IMG/VR virus record: IMGVR_UViG_3300027987_000368
Coordinates: 16,844 to 80,843 of that record
From: a virus
Length of the DNA stretch: 64,000 bases
Reading direction: 5' to 3' (one strand)
Positions 2,469 to 64,000 of this stretch are shown piece after piece. Each line of letters starts with the position of its first letter. Position 1 is the first letter of the stretch. The position numbers and the translations under genes are program-made. The notes under the pieces are model-generated. The model searched no databases. It worked only from the letters and a program-made list of their open reading frames with translations, and had not been told where the DNA came from.

Positions 2469-2764
2469 GGCGCGAGGTCCTCGCCTTGATCGTCAAGGTC
2501 GCGCTGCCGCTGGCGATCGTCTTCGGCGAGCTGCGCCGCGTGACCGACCACGATCAGGATGTGCCCGAGCGTCAGGACTGCCAAGGCGACGCCGGCCATC
2601 AAAAACGCGTCGGTGACGACGGGCGTCCAGATGATGGCAGCTATCCACCCCAGCGAGAGAATGACGCTCGATGCGATCGCGTGCTTGCCCCCGGCTACCG
2701 CCGTCGAGGTGGCTACGTCGGTCCACATGCTCGGCTTGGCGGTCGGGGTCTTGCTCGGTTTCAT
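2465..2764 (-). CDS. Small membrane protein (2 TM segments)
   Basis: Two hydrophobic stretches followed by a charged C-terminus; 4-nt overlap with the downstream gene. Confidence 0.5.
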   Translation of the reverse strand: MKPSKTPTAKPSMWTDVATSTAVAGGKHAIASSVILSLGWIAAIIWTPVVTDAFLMAGVALAVLTLGHILIVVGHAAQLAEDDRQRQRDLDDQGEDLAP

Positions 2765-2775
2765 GGGGGGAGCAA

Positions 2776-3462
2776 TCAGCCAGAGCCTGTTCGATTCCCT
2801 GCGCTGGTCTCGCGGGCGTAGAGCCAGCGCCAAGCCCGGACCAGCGGACCGTGCCGCGCGGCGAGCTCGGCCAGGCGCTCGGACCACGGCTGCCCGACGG
2901 CCAGCGCCTGGTCGGTCGCCATCATCCACTCGCCAGACAGCGGCTTGACGCCCATGCCCGCGAGCAAGCAGCCCGCGGCGACGGCTGGCTCCCAGCACAG
3001 CGCGATCACCAGCGGCTCGAGGTCGGCGAGCAGCACTCGAGCAGGTCGATCCGCGTCGGACTTCTTCGCGGTGATCGTGACCCCGCAAGTGAGTAGCCCG
3101 GGACGCAGGCGATCCGCGAACGCCTCGACCGGGGCCTTGGTCATCGCGTTCTCGTATCCACCAGACCCGCGCGCGCCGTAGTGCAGGAAGTCGAGCATCC
3201 ACCGAGCATCTCCGTGCGCCTTGTGAATCTGCCTGGATGGCTCTCGGGCGGTCCCGTTGACTCGCCGCCACATCCCCGCGAGCTCGGGATCCCGCTGATA
3301 CATCGTCGCCAGCGGCCGCTGCAGCTTGGCTCGATAGGTGCCCGCCGCGTGACCGATCGTCGGGATGCACGAGAGCACGAACGCGAGCGCCTCGCCCTCG
3401 ACGATCGGCGTGGTCACGGGCTCGCCCACGCCGGCGCCGAACAGGCTGATCTGCTCGCTCAT
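2776..3462 (-). CDS. Hypothetical protein
   Basis: MSEQISLF... ORF, start overlaps the upstream stop. Confidence 0.55.
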   Translation of the reverse strand: MSEQISLFGAGVGEPVTTPIVEGEALAFVLSCIPTIGHAAGTYRAKLQRPLATMYQRDPELAGMWRRVNGTAREPSRQIHKAHGDARWMLDFLHYGARGSGGYENAMTKAPVEAFADRLRPGLLTCGVTITAKKSDADRPARVLLADLEPLVIALCWEPAVAAGCLLAGMGVKPLSGEWMMATDQALAVGQPWSERLAELAARHGPLVRAWRWLYARETSAGNRTGSG

Positions 3463-4166
3463 GTGGCCTCGGCCGCGTCGAGCATCTCCACCATCGCGTC
3501 GACGTGGGCGCCGAGCATGACGCCGTGGCCATGGCAGTCGGGGCACGGGTCCGCGACTGTATGGCCGGTGTTCATACAGTCCGAGCACCCGTAGCCCTCG
3601 AAGCGCCCGCTGGCGTGGTCGCAAATGCTCGGATGTCCATCACACCTCGGGCACTCTCCCCGCAGCCACGCAGCGATCCACTCGCCAAGCGGTTCGCCGG
3701 TGGTCATCAGGAGGTCAGCTTCAACGGCGAGCTGATCGCGTCGAACGGGTCGAGCGAGTTCGGCAACCACGCTGAAGTGCGCGCGATCGCGCGGCGCAAG
3801 CTCGCAAACGAGACGTGGCAGCGCATCGCGTTCGCTCTCGATTGGGTGGCTGTAGCTCGACTCGACACATGCAGCCCACAGGAGAGCTGTGAGCGCGTCA
3901 AGTATCCACTTTCGCGCGCACGCTGTGTTGTGCGTCACCATCACCACGCTCCCTACGATAGTCGCACTCCATTCTGGCCCAGGCACGAACCCGATCTTCA
4001 AGCTGACGCACTCGTGCTGAGCGAGGTGGCGGTCCAATAAGCTGACTGGGTTGGCCCGAGCATGTGATCGTCGCTGGCGGGTGTCCCACGTGCGGAACAC
4101 ATCTAGAACGTCAGCGTTCATGTTCGAGACCGTGACGTTCGCATGTAGCGGTCGAGGTCGCGGCAC
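3459..4166 (-). CDS. Hypothetical protein with C-terminal DnaJ-type Zn fingers
   Basis: CPRCDG, CSDCMNTG, CPDCHGHG; ADLLMTTGEPLGEWI resembles the TIGR02996-like motif. Confidence 0.5.
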   Translation of the reverse strand: MPRPRPLHANVTVSNMNADVLDVFRTWDTRQRRSHARANPVSLLDRHLAQHECVSLKIGFVPGPEWSATIVGSVVMVTHNTACARKWILDALTALLWAACVESSYSHPIESERDALPRLVCELAPRDRAHFSVVAELARPVRRDQLAVEADLLMTTGEPLGEWIAAWLRGECPRCDGHPSICDHASGRFEGYGCSDCMNTGHTVADPCPDCHGHGVMLGAHVDAMVEMLDAAEAT

Positions 4167-4329
4167 GCCGCCGCCGTCTGTCCCCTGGCGACATCGAGCA
4201 CGGCCTCTGCCTGTTCGAGCACGGCCGCCGCCGCATCCTCAATCGCCTCCGATTCTGCCGCAGCCTGGCGCAGCTGCTCGAGCTGCTCGTCGAACCCCGT
4301 TGTCGTGTCGACGACCCGCTGTGGAATCC

Positions 4330-4500
4330 TCACGACCCAAGCCTCGACAGCAAGATGGTGCACCCCAACGCGACCACGGCCGCGACCACGAAGATCAGCC
4401 CGGCGGTCCACGAGATGCGCGCAACGATGGCGAACATGACGAGCGTCGTCGCCAGCCAGGCGAGAACGGCAAAGCTTTGGGCGCCCGACTTGGCGTTCAT
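4330..4500 (-). CDS. Small membrane protein
   Basis: 56 aa, two hydrophobic helices. Confidence 0.4.
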   Translation of the reverse strand: MNAKSGAQSFAVLAWLATTLVMFAIVARISWTAGLIFVVAAVVALGCTILLSRLGS

Positions 4501-4585
4501 TGGATAGCTCCGATGCGAATGTGATGAAGCACGACGTCCGCGACCGATGCTCATAGCGACTGATTCCCAGACATCATCCGAGACA

Positions 4586-15972: not shown

Positions 15973-17604
15973 TCAGGCATCCTGTTCCTCGATGATCGGA
16001 AGCCCACACTCCTTGAGCGTGAGCCTGTGGAATTCTTCCGTGGTGTATCGCCGCCAGCCGGTGTCGTGAAACAGCCAGACGCCCGCGACCCGGCGCTCGC
16101 GGGCAATGCTGCGCGAGCACTGCCAGCAGGATGGACCGCCCGACACGGCGAGCTGGCCGTCGGCGGTCTTGACATGCAGGAGCTCGAGCTGGTCGAGGTA
16201 GTGCGCGGTCATGTCCCGGAGCGCCTCCATCTCGGCGTGCTCGCAGAGCTTGGCGCAGTTGGCCATGCACGCGGGTGATCCGTCACAACCAAGGGGGCGA
16301 GGCGGGGAGTTGTGCCCGCCGCTGATGAGCTGCGGCGTGTTGTCCGGCCGGTAGATGGCTGGCTTGTAGATGACCACTCCGCGCTTGCTTTTGCAGCACG
16401 GCGATGTGTTGGCCAGCCGGACGGCGCGATCAATAGCGAATTGTGGCGGGTTCATTTCGGTCCTTGGCTGTGAATGTAGTTGATCGATGGTGAACGAATG
16501 GCCCCCGGTTCGCGTTGGGGCTTGGTCACCGAGGAGCTCGGCTTCGCAGCGTTCGGTCGCGGCGGCGTAGAGCTCCCGAGCGTGCGCCTGCTCTGGGTAC
16601 ATCTCGACGAGCTCGGCCGCTTGCTCTGCGTGCTTGGAGATCATGTCCTCGCGCGTCATCCCGATCGACCGCAGAGCGGAGCCGCGATTCAGCAGGTGCG
16701 TCAGCCTCGGGCAGATCTTGTCGATGTACCTGACCCAGCGTGCCTCGGGCGTCGATTGGCGCTCGTAGTCTTCGATCAGCTCGACGATCCGCGGAAGCCC
16801 GAGCGCGCGCAGCTGCTCGAGCGCGGCCTGCTCGCGCGCCGCCTTGTGCTCCCGCTCCCCGTCCGTCAGCCCCCAGGCCGTGCACGTGTCCTTGGCGTAG
16901 GTCTCGACCAGGTCGTGGACGAGCACCGCGCCAAGCAGCTGCGCCCGCCGGAGCTCGCTCGGAGCGAGTTCGATGGCGAGCAGCCCGAGCATCACCGTGT
17001 GTGTCGTGTCGCTCTCGGGCTGGCCGTCGGGGTGCTCGGTCGTGCGCAGGACCTGTCCGAACTGCATCGCCACCTCCGCGAGCTTGAGCGCCTGCTCGAG
17101 CTGGTGATCGGCCAGCTGCCCGTCGAGGTCGGCGTCGCGCTTGGCGAGTTCCGCAACGCTGGGGAAGTCGGATGTGTTGATGCCCAGCCGCGCGATGGCT
17201 TCGCGCGCGCGCTCGTTCGGCGTCGCCAGCTTCGCCGCCTCAAGCCCGATCAGATCGGCAAGGGCGACGTCACTCAGCAGCGTCAACCGCCCGGGTTCCC
17301 CGACTAGCCTGACCCCGACGATCGCGGGTGGATCCCCATCGAGGCGCCTGAGCACCGGGTACCACCACGACTCGCGGCCCTCGTTCGTGAGCTGCACCAA
17401 CCAGCCGTCGACGGTTGGAACCCCGCGGGCGAAGTGATGACCAGGCGGATCCCCGGCATCGAGCTCCCCGGAGAACACCAGTTCGACCTCGGCGCCAGCC
17501 ATCTCGGCGGATTCGAGCTGGCGCAGGAACTCGGCTCGCACGTGGGTGAGCATGGCGGATTGACCAAGCTCACCCACGTGCGGACCAGACTTATCAGTCT
17601 TCAT
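15973..17604 (-). CDS. HD-domain (YfbR-like) nucleotidase fused to dCMP/cytidine-deaminase-like domain
   Basis: ESDTTHT...LVHDLVE...DK (HD family); SPCCKSKRGVVI...GHN...CEHAEMEAL...PSCWQC (Zn deaminase); no stop between the domains. Confidence 0.8.
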   Translation of the reverse strand: MKTDKSGPHVGELGQSAMLTHVRAEFLRQLESAEMAGAEVELVFSGELDAGDPPGHHFARGVPTVDGWLVQLTNEGRESWWYPVLRRLDGDPPAIVGVRLVGEPGRLTLLSDVALADLIGLEAAKLATPNERAREAIARLGINTSDFPSVAELAKRDADLDGQLADHQLEQALKLAEVAMQFGQVLRTTEHPDGQPESDTTHTVMLGLLAIELAPSELRRAQLLGAVLVHDLVETYAKDTCTAWGLTDGEREHKAAREQAALEQLRALGLPRIVELIEDYERQSTPEARWVRYIDKICPRLTHLLNRGSALRSIGMTREDMISKHAEQAAELVEMYPEQAHARELYAAATERCEAELLGDQAPTRTGGHSFTIDQLHSQPRTEMNPPQFAIDRAVRLANTSPCCKSKRGVVIYKPAIYRPDNTPQLISGGHNSPPRPLGCDGSPACMANCAKLCEHAEMEALRDMTAHYLDQLELLHVKTADGQLAVSGGPSCWQCSRSIARERRVAGVWLFHDTGWRRYTTEEFHRLTLKECGLPIIEEQDA

Positions 17605-25331: not shown

Positions 25332-25400
25332 TGTCCCTCGACATGTCCCTTGTGTCCCCCGGCGTGAAACCCGGCGTGTCCCTTGTGTCCCCTGTGTCCC
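25332..25400 (+). repeat. Six TGTCCC direct repeats upstream of the TerS candidate
   Basis: Copies at 25332, 25344, 25353, 25377, 25386, 25395 (two triplets). Confidence 0.75.
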
Positions 25401-25421
25401 ACGCGGTGTTACGATGTGGTT

Positions 25422-26180
25422 GTGAAGCTCGAGCCCACGGACACGCGACCATCGGAGATCCTGCGCCTTGTCGGGTCTGGCCTCACAGCAAAGGACGCGG
25501 CGGCCGAGGTCGGGATCAGCCGCAAGACGGTCACTCGGTGGCGACAGGGGTTGGCCGGGTTTGCCGCGGCATGCGATCGAGCTGCAGTTCTGAGCAGCGG
25601 CACGTCGCCAGCGGAGCGATCCGCGCTCGACTTGCTCGTGCGGACGTGGACCCCCGGCGGCCTGGTCAGCGCGCAGCATGAAGAGCCCACCCAGCCTGGC
25701 CAGCCTGGCCAACCCGAGGCTCTCGAGCAAGAGCCGGCTACGGACTCGGTCGCAAAACCGGAAGCGGCACCATCGCCGTCGAGCACCGTGGACCCAGACG
25801 TGCTCGATGTACGGGGGAAAGAGCTCGCAGTCGCCCGCCGATCTCCAGCTGCCGAGCCAGAGTCTCCCTACACGACGGCGCGTCCGCCCACGCCAGCCGA
25901 GTGGCTTGCGGAGATGGCATTGCTCAGCAAGGACTCGTCGCAGCCAGCTCAGGTCCGGGCGGTGGCGATCGCAGCGGTGAGCTCTGGCGTGCTCGGCGGG
26001 CCAGTGAGGCGGCCAGTCGAGGCCGAGCAGGTGCCCAGCCAGGTCCGCGGCCGTGACCCAGGCGTGCCGGCGAGCGTCTGGAAGGAGGCGCGAAAGAACT
26101 TCCTCGGCCCAGCTCCAGACGACAAGCCGGACGCGGCTCCTGGCGGTGACGTCGTCGAGTTCGAGCGGGCGCCTGGCTAG
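25422..26180 (+). CDS. HTH protein, probable terminase small subunit
   Basis: GLTAKDAAAEVGISRKTVTRWR HTH; C-terminal VWKEARKNFLG reminiscent of Mu-type TerS ends; no other TerS candidate near TerL. Confidence 0.5.
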   Translation: MKLEPTDTRPSEILRLVGSGLTAKDAAAEVGISRKTVTRWRQGLAGFAAACDRAAVLSSGTSPAERSALDLLVRTWTPGGLVSAQHEEPTQPGQPGQPEALEQEPATDSVAKPEAAPSPSSTVDPDVLDVRGKELAVARRSPAAEPESPYTTARPPTPAEWLAEMALLSKDSSQPAQVRAVAIAAVSSGVLGGPVRRPVEAEQVPSQVRGRDPGVPASVWKEARKNFLGPAPDDKPDAAPGGDVVEFERAPG

Positions 26181-42007: not shown

Positions 42008-44308
42008 TCAGGTCGTGGTGGCAGGCTTGCCGTAGACGGTGGTGGTGTCGATCTTCGGAACGATGATCGACACCGCGGAACCGTCCCTGCTCGACTTGCG
42101 AGCGGTTGCATGGCGTTTGGTCGCGGCGTATGCGTGATTCACGAACGCGTCGAACGTCGGAGCCGGCTTCTCCGGGTCGGGTCCTATCGCACTGTCGAGG
42201 TCCACCTTAGCGGCCGGGTCGAGGTCGAGGATCGCGGCGACGCGCATCGAGGTCATCGAGTCGGGTCGCTTGCCGTCCGACCACGTGGACACGAGCTGCG
42301 GACACAGCGGGGCGATCTCTCGCTCGAGCTCACGCATGTCGGCTTCTGCCTTGTCGGCCTCCAGCTTGTTGACGGTACGCGTAAGTGCGGAGAGCTCTCC
42401 CTGCGCGGCCGCGAGGTCGGTCGTCAGCTTGGCGGAGTCGCCGTGCACCTTGGCCTGCGACGCTCGGATGCGGGCAGCGGCGTCCTTGCTGACGCGCAGC
42501 TTGACGCCGTCCAACTCCATCATCTCGCCGCCGCCCAAGGCCTGCTTGACCATCTCGGGGTCGAGCTCGAGCGCGGCGGCAATCGCCTGCATCGCACCGT
42601 CTGCGGCCTCGGGGCTATCCGCGTAGGCGTATGCCTTGATCGCGTCGAGCAACGCCATCGCGGCCTCGGGGTCCATCTGATCTTTCTTCGGCTTCGTCAT
42701 GTCGTGTTCCTTGCTGGCCTCAAAAACGAAAACGGTCGCGCCGTCGATCAGCACTCGAGCCTTCGAGCCCGCACGTGCCTCATCAACGAGAGATTGATGG
42801 TTCACCTCGATGTCGGTCTGCCGATACGTGTACCGAACCCCCTGCGCATCGATGCCTGGGTCTCGCACCGCGAGCGTGGTGTAGCCGGTCGACAGCTGCA
42901 CCTTGCCGTCACGCATCTTGCGGATCGTCGAGATGTCGCCGACGCAGATCTTGACCTTGACGAAGCGTAGGCCGTGCTCGTCAGCGGGTTCCAGCGTCGC
43001 CCCCGTGCCGAGCATGCCCCTGGCGTACTCGCGCCAGTTGTCGGCCGTCACGAGGACTGGCGGATGGTCGTCGGTGAACGTGGCGAAGTCGAAGCTCTTG
43101 AGGCTCTTCTCGACTTCGTCCTCGCTCCGGTACTCGTACCAGGTGCTCTTGCCGTCGCCGTAGAGCTGGGAGCCCGTGCGCGCGGCGTAGCCCGTGACGA
43201 TCAGCCGGCCGTCGGTTGTGACCTTGTCGGCGAACCCGTCGGCGCGCAGCCGCTCCGCGATCGAGTTGACCTGCGCAGCATCGGTCTTCGGGCCGAGCTC
43301 GTCAGCGATGGCGAGCGCGCGGTCAACCGCCACGCGGTCTTCGGCACCGAGCGCGAAGTCCATCGTGCAGGTGCGGAAGACCCGGTCGGTCGAGTCGGCC
43401 TGCACGGTTGCGTTCGCCACGGTAGTCAGCAGCGCCAGAGCGCCCGCGAGCGCCTTGTCGGTCCAGCCTCGGGCGGCACGCTTGATCGGCGGCAAGGCCA
43501 TAACTCCGCGCAGCGCCTGGGTGACGCTGTCAGCGGTCGGCAGCTCGGAATCGTCGGTCGCATCGGTCCAGTGCCCCCAGTCCCGAAGCGACGCGTCGCG
43601 CTCGCTCGGACCTTCGCGGCCCTCGATCACAATCGGTTCCCCCTGCTCGACCTCGGACATGCGCTTGACAAACGCGATAGCCTTGACCGCGTCGTCGTAG
43701 TCGCCCTCGGTCCAGTCGGACATGGGCTTTTCTTTGAGCGCGATCACCCGGCGCAACGCATCTCGGGCGCTCTCTCGAGCGGCGCCTTCTTTGCGGTTCT
43801 CCCCCGCATATGGGCTCGCTGCCCAGTCGCGCATCTGCGAGGGCGTCATAGTGATCAGCCGCGGAAACTCTTCTCGGATCTGCGCCTGCTCATCTTCGCT
43901 GCGCGCGACATCGCCGTGAATGTCATGGTTGGCGCGCAGCTTCTCGAGCATTCCCTGGAGCGTGGTCTTGGCCTCGGCTCGGACTGCGTCCGACAGACCC
44001 TCGGTCTGCGACAGCCGGGCGAGCGCGTTGCGGATCGCGTTGCCGATGCCGACGAGCTCGCCGTCCTCGACGTACGCGATTGGCAGCTTGAAGCTCGCGC
44101 GCGTGATATTCTCGCCCGTAGGTGGATTCAGATCGGCAACGACGAAGCCCCTGGAGGCCTTGGCCCAGTCGACCTCGTCATCGTCCCCCGTAGCCCAGTC
44201 GAAGATTTCGCGCTGGCCACGAGCCCCGTCCCACTCGCCCTCGCGCAAGGTCATCGTGGCGTCAACCGTGACGGCGAATGCGTCTAGGCGTGCGGCGTGC
44301 CCGGTCAT
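42008..44308 (-). CDS. DUF2213 prohead protease/scaffold with N-terminal extra domains including DUF3140-like
   Basis: DGRLIV..AARTGSQLY...YR..EV..SLKSF...TDDHP...QLSTGY...NH.SLVD.ARAG; upstream EF..LITMTPSQMRDW...AFVKRM...SLRDWGH. Confidence 0.85.
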   Translation of the reverse strand: MTGHAARLDAFAVTVDATMTLREGEWDGARGQREIFDWATGDDDEVDWAKASRGFVVADLNPPTGENITRASFKLPIAYVEDGELVGIGNAIRNALARLSQTEGLSDAVRAEAKTTLQGMLEKLRANHDIHGDVARSEDEQAQIREEFPRLITMTPSQMRDWAASPYAGENRKEGAARESARDALRRVIALKEKPMSDWTEGDYDDAVKAIAFVKRMSEVEQGEPIVIEGREGPSERDASLRDWGHWTDATDDSELPTADSVTQALRGVMALPPIKRAARGWTDKALAGALALLTTVANATVQADSTDRVFRTCTMDFALGAEDRVAVDRALAIADELGPKTDAAQVNSIAERLRADGFADKVTTDGRLIVTGYAARTGSQLYGDGKSTWYEYRSEDEVEKSLKSFDFATFTDDHPPVLVTADNWREYARGMLGTGATLEPADEHGLRFVKVKICVGDISTIRKMRDGKVQLSTGYTTLAVRDPGIDAQGVRYTYRQTDIEVNHQSLVDEARAGSKARVLIDGATVFVFEASKEHDMTKPKKDQMDPEAAMALLDAIKAYAYADSPEAADGAMQAIAAALELDPEMVKQALGGGEMMELDGVKLRVSKDAAARIRASQAKVHGDSAKLTTDLAAAQGELSALTRTVNKLEADKAEADMRELEREIAPLCPQLVSTWSDGKRPDSMTSMRVAAILDLDPAAKVDLDSAIGPDPEKPAPTFDAFVNHAYAATKRHATARKSSRDGSAVSIIVPKIDTTTVYGKPATTT

Positions 44309-44514: not shown

Positions 44515-45183
44515 CTACATTGCGATCGGGACATACAGACCGATGGGCGATCCCTCGACGAGATCCTGCAATCGAATCGATGCGCGCGCGCTCAGCTTCT
44601 CCACGCGGGCGACGAACACGTGGCCGAAGGTCGTGACTGTGACCAGACCGCGAGCTGCCACGCTCGCCATTCGCGACTCAACCTGCGCGCGCGCGTCGTC
44701 ATCGCTCGAGGCCCGGACCCACGTCACGAGTTCATCGGACGCGCGCACGGGCGTGACCGAGGGCGACCCGAGCACACCAACCCCGGAGACATCGACGCCC
44801 GCCAGATCGACCGTCACGGGGATCGCGGATCCCCGGACGCGAAGTCGCAGCGCGGTGTCGCCTGCGCTCGGCCAGACAGCGACAAGCCGCCGGCTCTCCG
44901 CCGGGATCTGGTCGAGCACCCGGCGAGCTGCGAACGGATCGCGGACCCCGACGCCGTCGACCTCGAACACTAGATCGAACAGCGGTGGCCCATCGAGCAC
45001 GAGGTCGGCATGCGCCGATCCGGTGGCTCGAGACCACCGCCCGATCAACGTCGCGGACGGCTGCTTCACGCCGGCCTCGACTTTCCAGATATGGCCGCGC
45101 CCGACCCCGACGCGCGCGGAGAGCTCGACCTGCGTCAGCCCGGCGCGGACCCGCTCGCGTCGAAGTCGGGATCCGAGGGTCAC
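44515..45183 (-). CDS. XRE-family HTH protein with C-terminal extension
   Basis: LGSRLRRERVRAGLTQVELSARVGVGRGHIWKVEAGVKQPS. Confidence 0.75.
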   Translation of the reverse strand: MTLGSRLRRERVRAGLTQVELSARVGVGRGHIWKVEAGVKQPSATLIGRWSRATGSAHADLVLDGPPLFDLVFEVDGVGVRDPFAARRVLDQIPAESRRLVAVWPSAGDTALRLRVRGSAIPVTVDLAGVDVSGVGVLGSPSVTPVRASDELVTWVRASSDDDARAQVESRMASVAARGLVTVTTFGHVFVARVEKLSARASIRLQDLVEGSPIGLYVPIAM

Positions 45184-45554
45184 CGCGCCCCCACCACAAC
45201 ACCGCGCGCGAGCAAGAGCGGCCGCACTTCGTTCCAGACTTTCGCGTGCCCCTTGGCCATCGTCGCCTGGCCCTTCGACAGCTCCACGTGCGGCTCTGTC
45301 AGCACGATGATGCGTTCGCACGGCACGCCATCGGCGTTGGACTTGAGCCACTTTCGCAGGGCCCGCACGACCGCCACACCTTCGATCACCCACGGTCCGG
45401 GGCGCGCGAACCAGTCCATCGCCACGTGCTCGCTCACGCCCGACCAGTCGAATAGCTCGATCAGGTCGTCGGTGTGCAGCACGTTCGACATCGTGTTCGC
45501 CAGCGTCGTCTTGCCCGTGCGCGGGCCGCCGATGATGCAGATTCGCTCGGTCAT
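45180..45554 (-). CDS. Small P-loop kinase (adenylate-kinase-like)
   Basis: RICIIGGPRTGKTTLA...LHTDD...WVIEG. Confidence 0.75.
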   Translation of the reverse strand: MTERICIIGGPRTGKTTLANTMSNVLHTDDLIELFDWSGVSEHVAMDWFARPGPWVIEGVAVVRALRKWLKSNADGVPCERIIVLTEPHVELSKGQATMAKGHAKVWNEVRPLLLARGVVVGAR

Positions 45555-45838
45555 CGCTCGCCACGCTTCTGCCGAGAACCTCGGTCCCGATCGTAGCTTG
45601 AGATCTTCTCGATGGATGCAACCGGGGCAAAGTCTTCGCATCCAGCGGGCGAATCGGCCGTCCATCGCCGATTCACAACGACCAGACTTCGATGCTTCGC
45701 GCCCTCTCCCACCACGAGACAATCCATGCGCGGCTCTTCCAGCCCGAACGCACACTCAGAGCACTTCACCGCGCCAGCGGGCTTCTTGTGGGTCATCGAT
45801 CCATGAATCCAACGCGCCGCTGGGTTGTTCCCGATCAC
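45551..45838 (-). CDS. Small Cys-containing hypothetical protein
   Basis: CSECAF...C...CEDF; coupled to the portal stop and kinase start. Confidence 0.4.
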   Translation of the reverse strand: MIGNNPAARWIHGSMTHKKPAGAVKCSECAFGLEEPRMDCLVVGEGAKHRSLVVVNRRWTADSPAGCEDFAPVASIEKISSYDRDRGSRQKRGER

Positions 45839-48171
45839 CGCTCGCCCCGAATATTCAGCTGCATGTGCTCGACGCCGACCTGCGCAGCCCGGGGCGCCAA
45901 CTCGACGCCGCGGCTCACGGCCGACTTGAGCTCGCGGATGTTTCCCGGCCACGGGTAGACCAGCATCGTTGCGATCGCGGTCTCGGTGAACGCCGGGTCC
46001 GCGGACTCGTAGCCGCGCGCGCTCGTGTAGTCCGCGTAGATCCCTTGGGCGATCGTCACGATGTCGGACTCGCGATCGCGCAGCGGGGGGATCTCGATCT
46101 CCACCTCCGCCAGCCGATAGAACAGATCAGGCCGCAGCACCCACTCGTCGCGGGCGTTGAGCGAGGTCGCCGACACGAGCCGGGCTTCGTGCGGCGCGGC
46201 CAGCACCCGCAGCAACGCGGACTGGACCTCGCGCGGCATGTCGCCGACCTCGTCCAAGAACAGGGTCCCGCCAGCAGCCGAGGCCAGGCCCTTCCGCAGC
46301 TGCTTCGCCGCGGCTGCGGGGTCGTCGGCGAGCTCGGCGCTGTTGATCGCCACGAACGGGCCGTCGCCGACGTGGAGCCCCCTGGCGATCCCCTCTTTGC
46401 CCGTGCCGGTCTCACCGAGCAGCAGCACCGCGAGACCGCTGTCGCGGACGCGCTCGAGCACCGCGAAGATCTCCCGCATTGCGTCGGACTCGCCCCACAC
46501 GTCGCCGAACTTCGTGGACTCGGACAGGCCGAGGTCGTCGAGGCGCTCGTCGGCGGCCTGCTCGAGCTGGGCCTGGGTCTTGCCCATGAGCGCCTCGGTC
46601 ACCTGGGACAAGTAGAACTTCCAGCGGCCGGCGATCACGTGCCCGCGGACCTTGCCGGCCTTCGCCATCTTGATCAGCGTGCTCGACGAGACATTGAACG
46701 GCCGGCTTGCCTGCGCCGCGCTGATCATGTCCTCGCCCTCGGGGTTGTCGAGGCCGGACGCCGTCGCCGCCTCGCGTGCTTGCTGTTCGCGCGTTTCCTT
46801 CGCTTCATAGTAGGCGTCGATGTCCGGGTAGTCCTCGCGCAGAGTTGGGTCACCCAGGATCACGTCGAGAGGCACGCCTGTTTTCACAGCATCCGCCGCG
46901 CGGGCATCGGCGTTGGCCTTCCGCTGCAGGGCTTTGTCCTTGCCGTTCGCCTCCTGAATATCGCCCATGGTGACGATGAACTGCGTCGGCACGATGAGGC
47001 TCTCGCCAGCCAGCTTCGCCTTGTAGACCTGAGCGGCGAGCGAGATCTCGCTCCCGCGGGTGATCGCCGGCACGACCATCTGCTCCGCCCACCCGGCGAC
47101 GAGATCGTAATAGGCGTCCATCGGCGCCGAGTTGTCGCCGAGGTTGCCTTCGGCCTCCATGATCAGGAGCTCCTTCGGCACGCCCGAGCTCGCGGCCGCG
47201 CGCAGCGCCTTGCGTTCTACGAGCTTGTCGAGGCCCGAGATGTTGCGCGAGACATCCCCCAGGTTGTCGTGCTCGTCCATCACGAGCAGGCCGTGGGCGC
47301 TCAAGCCCTCCAGTGCCTGCTCAATCCGCAGCGCAACCGCCACTCCCTGAGCGCTTTCTGGGTTCTCGGCGGCGAGCGCCCAACCACGGAGCCGAAGGTG
47401 CAGGATCGACAGCGTTCGGATTATCGCCGACACGTCGCACTCTACCTTCGTCCACTCGTTGAACGCCTGGTAGATGCCCTCCATCCAGCTCGGCGGCCAA
47501 CCCCTGTTCATCAGCATGATGATGCCGTCGGGCGTGTCGGTGGCCGTCATGATCGTCAGCCGCGATCGATGGATGAACCGGCGCTCCCCTGTTCGATACG
47601 TCTCGAACCACTCGGCGCTTTTCCAGTTATGGCCGTCCTTCGGTCGCAGGCTCCATGCCGTGTGGACGCGGACGCCCTTGTACGCACGCACGTTGGCCAG
47701 CTTGAGCGCCTCGCCATCGCGGTCGCTGTCGTCGACCACATGCTCGAGGATCCCGGCGCCGAAGACAAACGCCCATGTCGCGGCCAGGCGGCACGCGATC
47801 TTGAACTTCAGATCGTCGAGCTTCGAGATCGTCGGCGCCCAGTCGAAGTCGCGCACATCGGTGTGCGTGTACTTGTGACCGGGCTTGGTCATCAGCATCG
47901 CGAAGCGGCCGATCATCTGCCGCGCGACGCCGTTCGAGATGTACCAGGCGTAGGCGGCCTCGCCGAACATCCAGCCGGGCAAACCCACCGGCGCCTCGCC
48001 GCGCAGGACCGCCGCGATGTCGCCGAGTCCGGCCTGCGAAAGATGATCGGTTCGAGCGGTTCGAGCGGCGCCTGAATTGTCGCTGCGTGGCTTGCTTGAC
48101 GACGAGCGCTTCGACGGCGAGCGCTTCGCGGCCGGTCGTTTTCCGCCAGACCGTTTGCTGCTCCGGCTCAT
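45835..48171 (-). CDS. Portal protein (DUF1073 type) fused to excisionase-type HTH and sigma54-activator-like AAA+ domain
   Basis: Follows TerL; YISNGVARQMI, FGAG, IHRSRL, SGLDKL..AASSGVPKELL, YYDLV (portal); GETGTGKE, GGTLFLDEVGDM, RPDLFYRL, PPLRDR, YPWPGNIREL (bEBP). Confidence 0.88.
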   Translation of the reverse strand: MSRSSKRSGGKRPAAKRSPSKRSSSSKPRSDNSGAARTARTDHLSQAGLGDIAAVLRGEAPVGLPGWMFGEAAYAWYISNGVARQMIGRFAMLMTKPGHKYTHTDVRDFDWAPTISKLDDLKFKIACRLAATWAFVFGAGILEHVVDDSDRDGEALKLANVRAYKGVRVHTAWSLRPKDGHNWKSAEWFETYRTGERRFIHRSRLTIMTATDTPDGIIMLMNRGWPPSWMEGIYQAFNEWTKVECDVSAIIRTLSILHLRLRGWALAAENPESAQGVAVALRIEQALEGLSAHGLLVMDEHDNLGDVSRNISGLDKLVERKALRAAASSGVPKELLIMEAEGNLGDNSAPMDAYYDLVAGWAEQMVVPAITRGSEISLAAQVYKAKLAGESLIVPTQFIVTMGDIQEANGKDKALQRKANADARAADAVKTGVPLDVILGDPTLREDYPDIDAYYEAKETREQQAREAATASGLDNPEGEDMISAAQASRPFNVSSSTLIKMAKAGKVRGHVIAGRWKFYLSQVTEALMGKTQAQLEQAADERLDDLGLSESTKFGDVWGESDAMREIFAVLERVRDSGLAVLLLGETGTGKEGIARGLHVGDGPFVAINSAELADDPAAAAKQLRKGLASAAGGTLFLDEVGDMPREVQSALLRVLAAPHEARLVSATSLNARDEWVLRPDLFYRLAEVEIEIPPLRDRESDIVTIAQGIYADYTSARGYESADPAFTETAIATMLVYPWPGNIRELKSAVSRGVELAPRAAQVGVEHMQLNIRGER

Positions 48172-49763
48172 GGCCGCCTCCGCGGAAACAGGGATTTCTT
48201 TGATCGTCGGACGTCGGACATTTGGACCACCTGGCCGTCAGTATCAATCGAGTGCTCGAAGTGAGCAAGCGCGTACGCAGCATCGGCGTGCCGCTGCTGG
48301 CCGCGGTCGGTCCTGCGCTGCGGAGCGTAGATGCCGGTGCCCCTGCGCTTGAGCGATGTCAGGTCGTCGGCCAGGTCTCGGCCGTGCCGCGGAAGCGCGA
48401 GCTCGCCGTGCTCTAGCTTCGAGCGCACCCGGATGAATGCGCTGTCCGGTAGCCGCATCGTCACCACCATCTTGCCGCGGGTCATGTCCTTCGCCCGCTC
48501 GGCGCTGCTCAAGCCGAGGCCATTTCCGTCGCCAGAGCCCGAGCGAAGCCGCGTCAGGAGCGGCCAGCAATAGTCCGCGATCTGGTCCTGCACGGTCGAC
48601 GGCACCTTCTCGCACTCGATGACGAGCCGCGGAACGCGTCGGTTGAGCGAGCTGTTGGTGCCGATGAATTTGCAGCTGATGTCCCCGGTGCGGCCGTAGT
48701 CGTCACCGACGTGGATGTCGAGCCCGAGCTGGTTGATGGCCATGAGCAGCGGCGCAAGGTGGTTGTCGAGCCAGCTCCTGACCAGCTGCTCGCGCTCCTG
48801 GGGCGTCGCTACGTCGTCCAGCTGCTCGGTGGGCAGGGGCCAGGGCTTTTCGGCGGACTCGACCAGGTCCCCGTTGATCCACATCCTCGGCTCCGCGCCG
48901 CCGCAGATCTCGACGATCGGGCACTCGGTGGGCGACAAGATCTGCGCGGCCAAGACGATCGCTCGCCCAATCAGCTGGTTGCTCGCGCCGGCGACGATGC
49001 CGAGGAACTCCTCGTCGAACACGTCCTGATTTTCGTGGCGGATCTGCGCGACCCAGGCGTCCTCGCGCTCCTGCGTCCAGCGGATCGGCGGGCGGCTGAT
49101 CCGGCAGATCCGCTTGTAGAGTCCGAGCTTCAGGGCCTCGGGAAAGAACACGGAGTGGAGCGAGGCGAAGGGCTTGCCCTCCGCGATGGCCGCCTTGACC
49201 CGCTGGACGTAGCGATAGAACCCGCTGTCGGTTCCGTGATGTGTGCTGAGTATGGCGCGGCGTCCGCCCCAGATGGAGATCGCGCTCGACGCCTTGAGCC
49301 ACGCAGTGAGGTCGACGTGCGCCGCTTCGTCGCAGATCGCAAGGCACCGCTTTTTGCCACGCATGCGGGCGGGGCGGTTCGGCAGCGCGTAGATGAAGCC
49401 GCCGCTGGGGAAGCGGATCCGGTAGGTCTGGATCGCCACCGGGTCGTGGACTTCATCGATCCAGTCAAATTCTTCGACCTCCGGGGTCGCGCGCATGATC
49501 GGCGCGAAGCGGTCCACCCATGCCGCGCACTCGAGGATGAAGCCGCGCGCGTCGTCCTGGCTGGTCGTCATGAAGTAGCAGTCCAGCCCGCCATCGCTCT
49601 TACGCGTCGATGCGACCGTCACGGCCTCGCACGCGGAAGCCCAGGTGTAGCCCTCCTGCCTGCCCTTCTCGGCGACCTTGATCGGCGAGGTATCCCAGCA
49701 CCACGCGGCCTGGTTGGGCAGCAGCACGTACTCGTCGGCGTCGACGCGGGGTCCTCCGTCCAC
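48168..49763 (-). CDS. terL: Terminase large subunit (Mu gp28-like)
   Basis: LLPNQ..W..D.S..KVAEKGRQEGYTWA, CDEAAH (Walker B), LSTHHG, FDEEF, GDDYGRTGD, DGNGLG, HADAAYALA. Confidence 0.9.
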   Translation of the reverse strand: MDGGPRVDADEYVLLPNQAAWCWDTSPIKVAEKGRQEGYTWASACEAVTVASTRKSDGGLDCYFMTTSQDDARGFILECAAWVDRFAPIMRATPEVEEFDWIDEVHDPVAIQTYRIRFPSGGFIYALPNRPARMRGKKRCLAICDEAAHVDLTAWLKASSAISIWGGRRAILSTHHGTDSGFYRYVQRVKAAIAEGKPFASLHSVFFPEALKLGLYKRICRISRPPIRWTQEREDAWVAQIRHENQDVFDEEFLGIVAGASNQLIGRAIVLAAQILSPTECPIVEICGGAEPRMWINGDLVESAEKPWPLPTEQLDDVATPQEREQLVRSWLDNHLAPLLMAINQLGLDIHVGDDYGRTGDISCKFIGTNSSLNRRVPRLVIECEKVPSTVQDQIADYCWPLLTRLRSGSGDGNGLGLSSAERAKDMTRGKMVVTMRLPDSAFIRVRSKLEHGELALPRHGRDLADDLTSLKRRGTGIYAPQRRTDRGQQRHADAAYALAHFEHSIDTDGQVVQMSDVRRSKKSLFPRRRP

Positions 49764-49818
49764 GCTAACAGAGTAGCACGGGCTTGCTGTCGGCCGCGGC
49801 GTAGGCCACGATCTGGGC

Positions 49819-50916
49819 ATGCAAGTCATCCTCGGTCCGACCGTAGTTGCTGATAAATTTGGGCCCGGGCTCAACGGCTTCAAGGGCTCGATCCCACCGC
49901 TGCCGCCGCCGACGGAGCTGACCCCCGAGTGGTTCGACGCCGTCCAGATGGAGCTCGTCAACATCTTGGTCAGCCAAGGGATCGCGCTCGACGGGTTGCA
50001 GTTCGACCAGATCGCGCAGGCGCTGGCGAACTGGAACTTCGTGGGTGACGTGCTGATCGCTAGTGGTGGAACGTTGACGGTCGATGGCGACGCGACCGTG
50101 GCTGCGGGAGGAACGTTCACCTGTGACGCCGGTTCGACGTTCGCGGTCAACTCCAGCACGCCGACCTTCGGAGCATTCAGCGAAGTCAGCATGCTCGGTG
50201 ACGTAATCATCGGCACCGACGACGGCAATATGCTCACGGTGAATGCGACGTCTGCATTTCAGGGACCAGTGTCGTTTATTGTGGGACAGACTGTCACAGC
50301 CAACGGTCCATTCGTCGCAGAGGGAACAGTATCGATCAATGACGCAATGTCTGTGCTAGGTGTCAATGGCGGGTCTATGGATAGCGATTCTGCCGCTGTA
50401 ATGACGTGGAACGGGACAGCTAGTTTCACCAGCAGGCTACGAGTCAACTCGTCAATCATGTCCGCAGTTGGAGACTTTGGACGCAGCGGCGCCAATATGC
50501 TTTGGTACACGGGCACCGCTACATTTTATGGTCACACCAGTGCCGATGGCTGGGTGAAGGGATACGGCGTATATGACACCGTAGCAGCAGCACCTACGGC
50601 GACCGCTGACACCTTTGTTGCAGTGGCGCCCCCGGTCGCCGCCGACCTAGATGTTCATGTGACCTGTTGGGTCCAACGAGCCGTAGCGGGAGATGTAACA
50701 GTTGCTCTAAATGAGGTTGGTGGCGTGGGCCAGATTGGCACCTCTACGGACATCGCGGCGCCAGTCACTGGGACATCGACATATCAGGTTGTTTCATTCT
50801 CACGCCGCAGGGTTTCCGCTGATACCACACCACGGATCTACCAGTTGAGCGTTGGTGGCAACGGCCAAAATGTCAACCTGAAGAACGTTAGGATTACTGT
50901 CGAGCCTGTTCGCTAG
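49819..50916 (+). CDS. Tail fibre / receptor-binding protein
   Basis: N-terminal DKFGPGLNGF...TELTPEWFDAVQMELVNI..GI.LD...QI..A is the baseplate-attachment domain of fibres that follow DUF2313; lower-GC 3' half. Confidence 0.8.
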   Translation: MQVILGPTVVADKFGPGLNGFKGSIPPLPPPTELTPEWFDAVQMELVNILVSQGIALDGLQFDQIAQALANWNFVGDVLIASGGTLTVDGDATVAAGGTFTCDAGSTFAVNSSTPTFGAFSEVSMLGDVIIGTDDGNMLTVNATSAFQGPVSFIVGQTVTANGPFVAEGTVSINDAMSVLGVNGGSMDSDSAAVMTWNGTASFTSRLRVNSSIMSAVGDFGRSGANMLWYTGTATFYGHTSADGWVKGYGVYDTVAAAPTATADTFVAVAPPVAADLDVHVTCWVQRAVAGDVTVALNEVGGVGQIGTSTDIAAPVTGTSTYQVVSFSRRRVSADTTPRIYQLSVGGNGQNVNLKNVRITVEPVR

Positions 50917-63434: not shown

Positions 63435-64000
63435 ATGAGCAAGACCTACGATCCCGGTGATCCAGCTAGCCGGGCCGAACTCGCTCGCATCATCCTCGAT
63501 CGGCTGGATGCGTGGGGCTTCAAGCCGGCATCAGTAGACGGGCGCGAGCTCGTCTACGACCGCGAGGCAGGTCCCGATCTCGTGTGCCGCGTGTACACGA
63601 CGATCGAGCATGGGAAGGTGAAGGCCAAGGCCCACGACGCAATTCGTGTCTGCTTGGTCTACGCTGGAGATCGATCGCGGCCGATCTCCAAGGATCGCCC
63701 TGTACGCCGGACTGGCGCGGTTGACGAGATCGTGGACCGGGTGAGGGACCGAGTCGACCGGGTCAGCCGGGACGCAGGGGCGGCGCCACGTTGCGCATGC
63801 GGAGCTCCGAAGGCGCGAGACAAAAACGACTTGGTAGTGTGTGCGGCGCGTTGTGGGTCGCCATCGCCATCGCCATCGCCATCGCCATCGCCATCGCCAT
63901 CGCCATCGCCATCGCCATCGCCATCGCCATCGCCATCGCCATCGCCATCGCCATCGCCATCGCCATCGCCATCGCCATCGCCATCGCCATCGCCATCGCC
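63435..64000 (+). CDS. Hypothetical protein running into the repeat (3' open)
   Basis: MSKTYDPG...VCRVYTTI...DAIRVCLVY...CACGAP...CAARCG then (SP)n with no stop in the window. Confidence 0.55.
   Translation, partial: MSKTYDPGDPASRAELARIILDRLDAWGFKPASVDGRELVYDREAGPDLVCRVYTTIEHGKVKAKAHDAIRVCLVYAGDRSRPISKDRPVRRTGAVDEIVDRVRDRVDRVSRDAGAAPRCACGAPKARDKNDLVVCAARCGSPSPSPSPSPSPSPSPSPSPSPSPSPSPSPSPSPSPSPSPSPSPSPS
63858..64000. repeat. (TCGCCA)n microsatellite, about 24 copies up to the window end
   Basis: Perfect hexamer tract; reads GDGD... on the minus strand and SPSP... on the plus strand. Confidence 0.95.

Follow-up and report, generated by a model that had tools for sequence, protein, structure and literature searches.

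A contractile-phage portal protein joined to a winged helix–turn–helix and an AAA+ ATPase of sigma-54-activator type

Here we describe an unusual portal gene in the virus record IMGVR_UViG_3300027987_000368, an 80,843-bp IMG/VR record rated complete, the last 64 kb of which (positions 16,844 to 80,843; 64,000 nucleotides) form the whole stretch of DNA that was analysed, referred to as the window. Gene order on the minus strand runs from the large terminase (TerL) through the portal gene to a small P-loop open reading frame (ORF), an XRE-type helix–turn–helix (HTH) gene, a DUF2213 protease/scaffold, a cement protein and the major capsid protein, with sheath, tape measure and baseplate hub genes further on; the phage is contractile-tailed and has a Pam3/E217-type head module. 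The portal gene is a single coding frame of 778 amino acids (aa) at 48171..45835 on the minus strand, in agreement with the 778-codon ORF of the original prediction. Its GC content at third codon positions (GC3) is 0.72–0.98 across all 60-codon windows, a uniformly high value that fits one continuous coding frame. Its start codon, behind a GGAGG, shares bases with the stop of TerL (ATGA). The encoded product, hereafter the fusion protein, joins a portal to a winged HTH and to an AAA+ ATPase related to those of bacterial enhancer-binding proteins (bEBPs). The gene and its parts, all on the minus strand, are as follows; pI is the isoelectric point, and L1 and L2 are the two loops of the bEBP AAA+ domain that are discussed below.

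45835..48171, minus: whole gene, portal–winged HTH–AAA+ ATPase, 778 aa (Pfam, PHROG, GC3)
48022..48171, minus: N-terminal basic tail rich in K, R and S, aa 1–50, pI 12; variable, and lacking in distant members
46759..48021, minus: portal core and C-terminal helices (crown-like), aa 51–471 (PF06381 at aa 74–375; profile match to solved portals)
46582..46743, minus: P-E-G-E-D cap and winged HTH of HTH_17 type, aa 477–530, pI 9.8 (Pfam, AlphaFold2, relatives, hhalign)
46504..46581, minus: helical linker and conserved LGLSES..FG motif, aa 531–556 (alignment, AlphaFold2)
46081..46503, minus: bEBP-derived AAA+ core, aa 557–697 (Pfam, structural alignment, AlphaFold2)
46393..46416, minus: Walker A, GETGTGKE (K592), aa 586–593
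46273..46341, minus: short, non-homologous segment that replaces the L1 loop, aa 611–633, the ESELFG...GAFTGA stretch being gone (alignment)
46249..46263, minus: Walker B, LFLDE (D640, E641), aa 637–641
46180..46209, minus: point at which the L2 (pre-sensor-I) insertion has been lost, aa 655–664 (alignment)
46111..46134, minus: RPDLFYRL (R680, R686), aa 680–687 (alignment)
45844..46080, minus: AAA+ lid with sensor II, aa 698–776 (Pfam, structural alignment)
45928..45951, minus: sensor II, WPGNIREL (R746), aa 741–748

The N-terminal part is a portal. Pfam Phage_portal_3 (PF06381, DUF1073) matches aa 74–375 (E = 3.5e-21; 75.7 bits against a cut-off of 33.8), and the PHROG portal family phrog_146 spans aa 28–526 (E = 1e-27). 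A profile built from 11 portal parts matched solved portals with E values from 3.8e-12 (Pam3 gp3) to 1.8e-7, including 9jlf, 9l01 and 7kln; the alignment with Pam3 gp3 is limited to residues 45–380 of that 621-aa protein. The core shared with Pam3 gp3 and other Phage_portal_3 portals (PDB 8hds, 9jlf, 9l01, 7kln) is thus homologous at the profile level and lies below BLAST detection. In the Pam3-type head module the portal occupies the same slot, accompanied by a cement protein and a capsid protein of family PF09950. Pam3 gp3, at 621 aa, is likewise much extended at its C-terminus, but the solved portals that were matched (407–621 aa) are too short to hold an HTH plus an AAA+ domain. Together with the position of the gene, these matches uphold the DUF1073-type portal that had been proposed for the N-terminal part, and we conclude that the fusion protein is the genuine portal of an uncultured contractile-tailed phage lineage. 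Among 50,697 GenBank phage records searched with tblastn, the portal part was unmatched and the AAA+ part alone found matches. The tail at aa 1–50 evolves fast (ratio of nonsynonymous to synonymous substitution rates, dN/dS, 0.61) and is confined to the closer clade, distant fusions beginning at the portal core.

Behind the portal lies an HTH motif that runs from MISAAQ... (aa 482) to ...RWKF (aa 519) and had been called excisionase-like. HTH_17 (PF12728) is sub-threshold here at aa 484–526 (13.7 bits) but reaches 29.8–35.4 bits, above threshold, in aligned relatives. AlphaFold2 gives the domain the topology strand–helix–helix–strand–strand–helix, at a predicted local confidence (pLDDT) of about 85. 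The HTH_17 matches in relatives and the predicted winged-helix topology support the earlier assignment.

The C-terminal part is recognizable as the ATPase of a bEBP. Pfam Sigma54_activat matches aa 559–692 (E = 2.3e-20) and AAA_lid_14 matches aa 698–776, so that profile searches recovered portal, HTH_17 (weakly here), Sigma54_activat and lid. The best fold matches of the AAA+ part in the PDB are all bEBP central domains (TM-score about 0.72–0.77, 29–35% identity, E about 1e-14). Predicted viral structures (fold search of BFVD) yielded generic AAA+ proteins only, at 12–19% identity, and the ESM Atlas yielded generic bEBP clusters only. An AlphaFold2 model of aa 441–778, made from a 23-row alignment, places the winged helix beside a bEBP-like AAA+ domain (pLDDT 86; predicted TM-score, pTM, 0.76). 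A four-copy complex prediction of aa 556–778 scored 0.32 against a mark of 0.42, which is evidence neither way.

The catalytic residues of this ATPase are kept and its sigma-54-contacting parts are gone. All four motifs named in the original prediction (GETGTGKE, LFLDE, RPDLFYRL and WPGNIREL) were located, and K592, N610, D640, E641, T669/S670, R680, R686 and R746 are invariant in the family. We take R680 and R686 to align with R162 and R168 of PspF, and N610 with the PspF glutamate-switch asparagine (PspF numbering). The Sigma54_activat match covers 167 profile positions with 134 residues, a shortfall of about 30. When the core is aligned with FlrA and NtrC1, this resolves into two clean deletions, at L1/GAFTGA and at L2 (a 12-residue gap); GAFTGA is deleted in every member of the fusion family, basal ones included. 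The protein ends about 30 aa past sensor II, and Pfam gave no match to a Fis-type HTH_8. The absence of the GAFTGA loop, loop 2 and the C-terminal Fis HTH, noticed at first sight of the sequence, is thereby established. Compared with the bEBPs NtrC1, PspF, FleQ, FlrA and ZraR, the fusion protein keeps core and lid, Walker A and B, the glutamate-switch asparagine, both arginines and sensor II; unlike them it has no GAFTGA/L1, L2, Fis HTH or N-terminal sensor, carries a different HTH on the N-terminal side of the ATPase and is joined to a portal.

Judged from these residues, the ATPase is apparently working, with everything required to bind and hydrolyse ATP retained. Because the loops that touch sigma-54 have been lost, the fusion protein is not a sigma-54 activator. 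Matches to the sigma-54 promoter consensus TGGCAC-N5-TTGCW (at most two mismatches) are not enriched in the window (19, against 24.8 expected), and no match to the sigma-54 DNA-binding domain, the mark of a sigma-54 gene, was found in the phage genome. Given these results and the invariance of the catalytic residues, the AAA+ domain should be an oligomer-dependent ATPase that is unable to engage sigma-54.

The fusion recurs widely. A search for the same architecture in other phages found more than 40 independent metagenomic proteins, with identity in the portal part down to about 31–36%. About 28 proteins (from JGI, ENA, Logan and NCBI) have the full architecture at 47–82% identity, and HMMER searches with the C-terminal 309 aa found distant fusions (P0159–P0163 and P0166, representatives of 50%-identity clusters), all with Phage_portal_3, HTH_17, Sigma54_activat and lid. 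The IMG/VR loci with the fusion are L082–L094 and L098. Samples in which relatives occur include soil, sediment and mangrove. Where loci are long enough to show the flanks, the order is TerL, fusion, DUF2213 protease, cement and capsid. Across those loci, identity to the window is 43–84% in the C-terminal module and 31–80% in the portal part, so the ATPase module is under at least as much constraint as the portal. dN/dS is 0.25–0.33 alike in portal, linker, HTH and AAA+, which is purifying. This pattern of conservation indicates that the HTH–ATPase module is a core head component and not swapped cargo.

The many independent assemblies that carry the fusion exclude a misjoin for practical purposes: the same open frame stands in each of those proteins and contigs, contigs of relatives from other public runs span the domain junction (46459–46951), GC3 is high and selection is purifying, leaving hardly any probability to chimeric assembly or to the loss of a stop codon in this contig alone. 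Among public sequencing runs the best share of the words of the stretch was 0.08, no RNA run was listed, and the contigs placed on the stretch were those of relatives only.

No free-standing close homologue of the HTH–ATPase module was found, since the short close matches all lie on contigs of 1–5 kb, where they are likely fragments, and the next best matches after the fusions are cellular bEBPs at no more than 40% identity. Two apparent long matches (L031 and L039), from contig scans dominated by cellular bEBPs, were rejected as ordinary bEBPs. A distant copy of the fusion (31% identity) lies at 2687–4564 of an 8.3-kb contig (L004) in a metagenome-assembled genome (MAG) labelled Nannocystaceae; its frame opens only at portal profile position 144 and its Sigma54_activat match covers the first third of the profile, and this copy may be frameshifted, decaying or an assembly error.

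A sister clade shows where the HTH came from. Among genomes of the order to which the Nannocystaceae MAG belongs, a search recovered a 520-aa portal (P0307, at locus L249) with Phage_portal_3 and a C-terminal HTH_17, without AAA+ and followed by a MuF gene. Its relatives make up a metagenomic sister clade of 520–640-aa portals, several annotated with PF06381 and PF12728; the members P0307, P0309, P0311, P0312 and P0314 end after the HTH with an acidic tail. By hhalign, P0307 and the fusion family are collinear over portal and HTH (99.4%, E = 4.9e-22). Fusions and AAA-less sister portals also have in common a P-x-G/E-D motif before the HTH, followed in the sisters by L, R or A and not by Met. 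Because the sister portals carry a collinear, homologous HTH and this shared motif without AAA+, the HTH is a feature of the portal lineage and not of an imported regulator. The source name of P0311 (an NCBI MAG record), 'anti-CBASS Acb1 family protein', looks like a naming carry-over tied to PF06381/TIGR01555 and not like functional evidence.

A tree built from the portal part only and rooted on the sister clade groups the fusions as one clade (SH-aLRT 100). P0163, P0166 and P0162 are basal in it; they keep L2 (VRRVGGE...DVRVV) and an L1 stump that lacks only the 9-residue GAFTGA tip, and all L2-less fusions are nested above them. As none has GAFTGA, contact with sigma-54 was already absent in all sampled members, the earliest branches too. 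On this comparison the ATPase appears to have been added to an HTH-bearing portal lineage, and the simplest history would run from a winged-HTH portal through a single gain of a bEBP core to loss of GAFTGA by the earliest sampled branches, with the rest of L1 and L2 lost later. It is possible that the AAA+ domain was instead lost in the sister clade.

The genes around the fusion gene are the following.

48168..50237, minus: large terminase, its stop overlapping the portal start (homology of relatives)
45180..45560, minus: small P-loop NTPase ORF (IIGGPRTGKT), 126 aa, in close relatives only
44515..45183, minus: XRE-type HTH protein, 222 aa, with a C-terminal domain without assigned family; following the fusion in most, not all, relatives
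42008..44308, minus: DUF2213 head-maturation protease/scaffold, 766 aa, with an N-terminal DUF3140 extension

TerL is homologous to its relatives only from about aa 160 of the 689 aa listed, so that the GTG given for the ORF probably lies upstream of the true start. Divergently upstream of it, on the plus strand, lies a tail-fibre-like gene (49819–50916); as L082, L083, L085 and L086 have the same arrangement, a recent inversion in this genome alone does not account for it. On the other side of the fusion gene, a 371-aa ORF of the mechanical list (44515–45560, minus) is an over-extension across the P-loop and XRE genes. This slot is a hot-spot for added genes, with inserts of 6 kb in L086 and 1.4 kb in L085. 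The protease gene places DUF3140 (aa 147–224) ahead of DUF2213 (aa 363–519); as conservation in most relatives sets in only at about aa 250–350, a variable domain has been added to this head gene too.

No match to three Pfam families of small terminase (TerS) was found in the genome, which proves little about the absence of TerS. The sole TerS candidate seen is a 265-aa ORF at 25383–26180 on the plus strand with an N-terminal HTH (HTH_23, E = 1e-6; weak HTH_17; phrog_664, a DNA-binding protein). The idea that the HTH–AAA+ part substitutes for the small terminase was set aside, because the C-terminus of a portal faces away from the terminase and because of this candidate. Tyrosine integrase was likewise without a match in the genome. 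The 124-bp 'direct terminal repeat' (DTR) of the record (window 63877–64000 and the first 124 bases of the record) is a (CGCCAT)n hexamer tract, and a related (GACGGC)n tract occurs at genome positions 120–155 and 70290–70310; the rating 'DTR, complete' may rest on a simple repeat within a gene and not on true genome ends. Two small contigs in MAGs labelled Nannocystaceae or the same order, and nearest bEBPs of myxobacterial type, weakly suggest a myxobacterial host within the Myxococcota; 73 genomes of that order gave only two portal matches.

What might an ATPase do on a portal? In the Pam3 structure the barrel and crown are innermost and DNA is anchored at the portal (PMC9942802). Since the match to Pam3 gp3 stops at residue 380 of 621, a Pam3-type crown and barrel would be C-terminal and capsid-facing in the fusion protein, which would place the winged HTH and AAA+ inside the capsid at the mouth of the channel. 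The reading that we favour, at a probability of roughly 0.4, is that twelve such modules at the inner mouth of the portal handle phage DNA under ATP control. Assembly of the 12-subunit ring would gather the twelve modules there. Because the arginines act across subunit interfaces, the ATPase would be active only when subunits associate, the portal ring supplying the proximity, and ATP-dependent association of the ATPase domains could then set how the HTH domains hold phage DNA, for example in anchoring or retaining its packaged end. Among the roles guessed at originally, weight shifts to a DNA-binding ATPase on the portal, because the HTH is an older feature of an ATPase-less portal lineage and because the module is conserved as a core head component. 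In a more ambitious version, which we regard as doubtful, the tethered AAA+ domains would assemble beneath the crown (for example as two stacked hexamers) and use ATP during packaging to grip, pull or latch DNA through the winged HTHs.

Several points weigh against this reading. L1 and L2, the usual substrate-engaging loops of the bEBP AAA+ clade, are gone. The AAA+ domain and lid are acidic (pI 4.8), so threading of DNA through an ATPase ring is not favoured. A released virion has no ATP, which confines any ATP-dependent step to the infected cell, and a twelve-fold portal with a six-fold AAA+ ring needs a symmetry solution that nobody has observed. We infer the location in the capsid, the oligomerization on the portal and the DNA-handling role, the first of them from Pam3 and general knowledge of portals. 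In the full-length AlphaFold2 model (18 close sequences) the portal part is poor (pLDDT 52, and below 50 over most of it). Outside simple repeats, no operator-like exact 14-mer repeats were found that would mark a repeated DNA site for the HTH, and no cultured phage with a portal–ATPase fusion was found.

Other readings keep the portal as a mere carrier or give the module a second life elsewhere. The head protease might free the HTH–ATPase, which would enter the host with the DNA and act on phage or host transcription with sigma-70 polymerase, the portal serving only as a capsid anchor. As part of the portal, the module would be assured of 12 copies in each particle, a gene for a DUF2213 maturation protease lies downstream and a short conserved motif, P-E-G-E-D, marks the boundary; moreover, the phage protein Htm (Gp204 of Mosigvirus AV110), likened here by its description, is a free, bEBP-like AAA+ protein that lacks GAFTGA and the Fis HTH and is reported to reprogram host transcription (bioRxiv 10.64898/2026.10.06.757011). 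Unlike the fusion protein, however, Htm is not part of the virion: it is made free and early, has an N-domain resembling NusG and a DD in Walker B, and binds single-stranded DNA. We hold this delivery of a regulator unlikely, as no other part of the head module is so well conserved and the HTH–ATPase is not swapped like polymorphic cargo, the boundary motif also stands ahead of the HTH in sister portals, which lack any module to set free, and twelve molecules, once diluted in the cell, could use their trans-acting arginines only after assembling into rings again. Regulation in the cytoplasm is decidedly unlikely: unassembled portal rings would use the HTH to attach to phage DNA and control transcription, perhaps with the XRE protein, until incorporation into procapsids removed them and so coupled assembly to expression. 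The XRE gene does lie beside the fusion in many relatives, distant ones included, but four loci with the fusion (L091, L093, L094 and L098) lack it, the want of repeated operator-like sites counts here too, and sister portals with an HTH and no ATPase are more easily explained by a role at the portal. In favour of this reading, TyrR and similar GAFTGA-less relatives of bEBPs act with sigma-70. Portals can also do a second job, as T7 gp8 does against RelA and SpoT (PMC13483052).

An internal start would provide a free protein more directly. The ATG at 46728 (aa 482) and the GAGGGCGAGGAC upstream of it are present, as the original prediction had noted, and 16 of the 18 members aligned have Met there. 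The free 297-aa HTH–AAA+ product proposed on that basis is nevertheless improbable as a second working protein: L083 has CTG (Leu) there, with two synonymous differences upstream of it, and the motif before this position is conserved as a peptide, being kept in AAA-less sister portals with L, R or A next instead of Met. Neither the searches for a free-standing homologue, described above, nor a search of the linker for a conserved −1 slippery heptamer gave it support. Very improbable, finally, is a dominant-negative poison, in which subunits without the loops would enter the bEBP rings of the host and disable its sigma-54 responses. Intact oligomerization-related motifs beside missing sigma-54 contact loops speak for it, and the nearest cellular relatives include myxobacterial-type bEBPs; yet identity to any cellular bEBP is only about 33–49%, a tether to a 12-mer inside the capsid is poor dosing for a stoichiometric poison, and progressive loop loss with conserved catalytic residues points to a retained ATPase job and not to an inert cap.

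If twelve HTH–ATPase modules do handle DNA at the portal, they would take on what falls elsewhere to the portal DNA 'lasso' of Pam3 or to proteins of the class of SPP1 gp7, 80alpha gp44 and MuF. In those phages the gp7/MuF gene sits directly after the portal gene and its product is a DNA-binding protein associated with the portal. Of these proteins, 80alpha gp44, a minor head protein, is reported to bind genome ends (PMC7290940). The AAA-less sisters share portal, HTH and P-x-G/E-D cap with the fusions and stop after the HTH; a MuF gene follows in the one sister locus seen, whereas no match to PF04233 (Phage_Mu_F, MuF) was found anywhere in the 80.8-kb genome described here. The fusion protein has no sequence homology to gp7, gp44 or MuF, so that the likeness is functional only, and here the function would be fused to the portal and ATP-dependent.

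Literature searches (portal with sigma-54 or AAA+; GAFTGA with phage; DUF1073) found no description of a portal–AAA+ or portal–bEBP architecture. The parts belong to known families; the combination, and the capsid-internal ATPase that it implies, are new. The natural series in which the GAFTGA tip goes first, followed by L1 and L2, shows a sigma-54 activator core stripped and reused, and offers a test case for a bare bEBP ATPase. To our knowledge, portals are seen as rings that are passive or act as sensors, and the terminase, outside the capsid, is the only known source of energy for packaging. The picture of a passive portal would be challenged by a conserved and apparently active ATPase on its capsid-facing end; if this ATPase does grip, pull or latch DNA, its ring would be a second, capsid-internal energy user in DNA packaging beside the terminase outside. 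Alternatively, the fusion would be a new way of loading a regulator into virions at exactly twelve copies.

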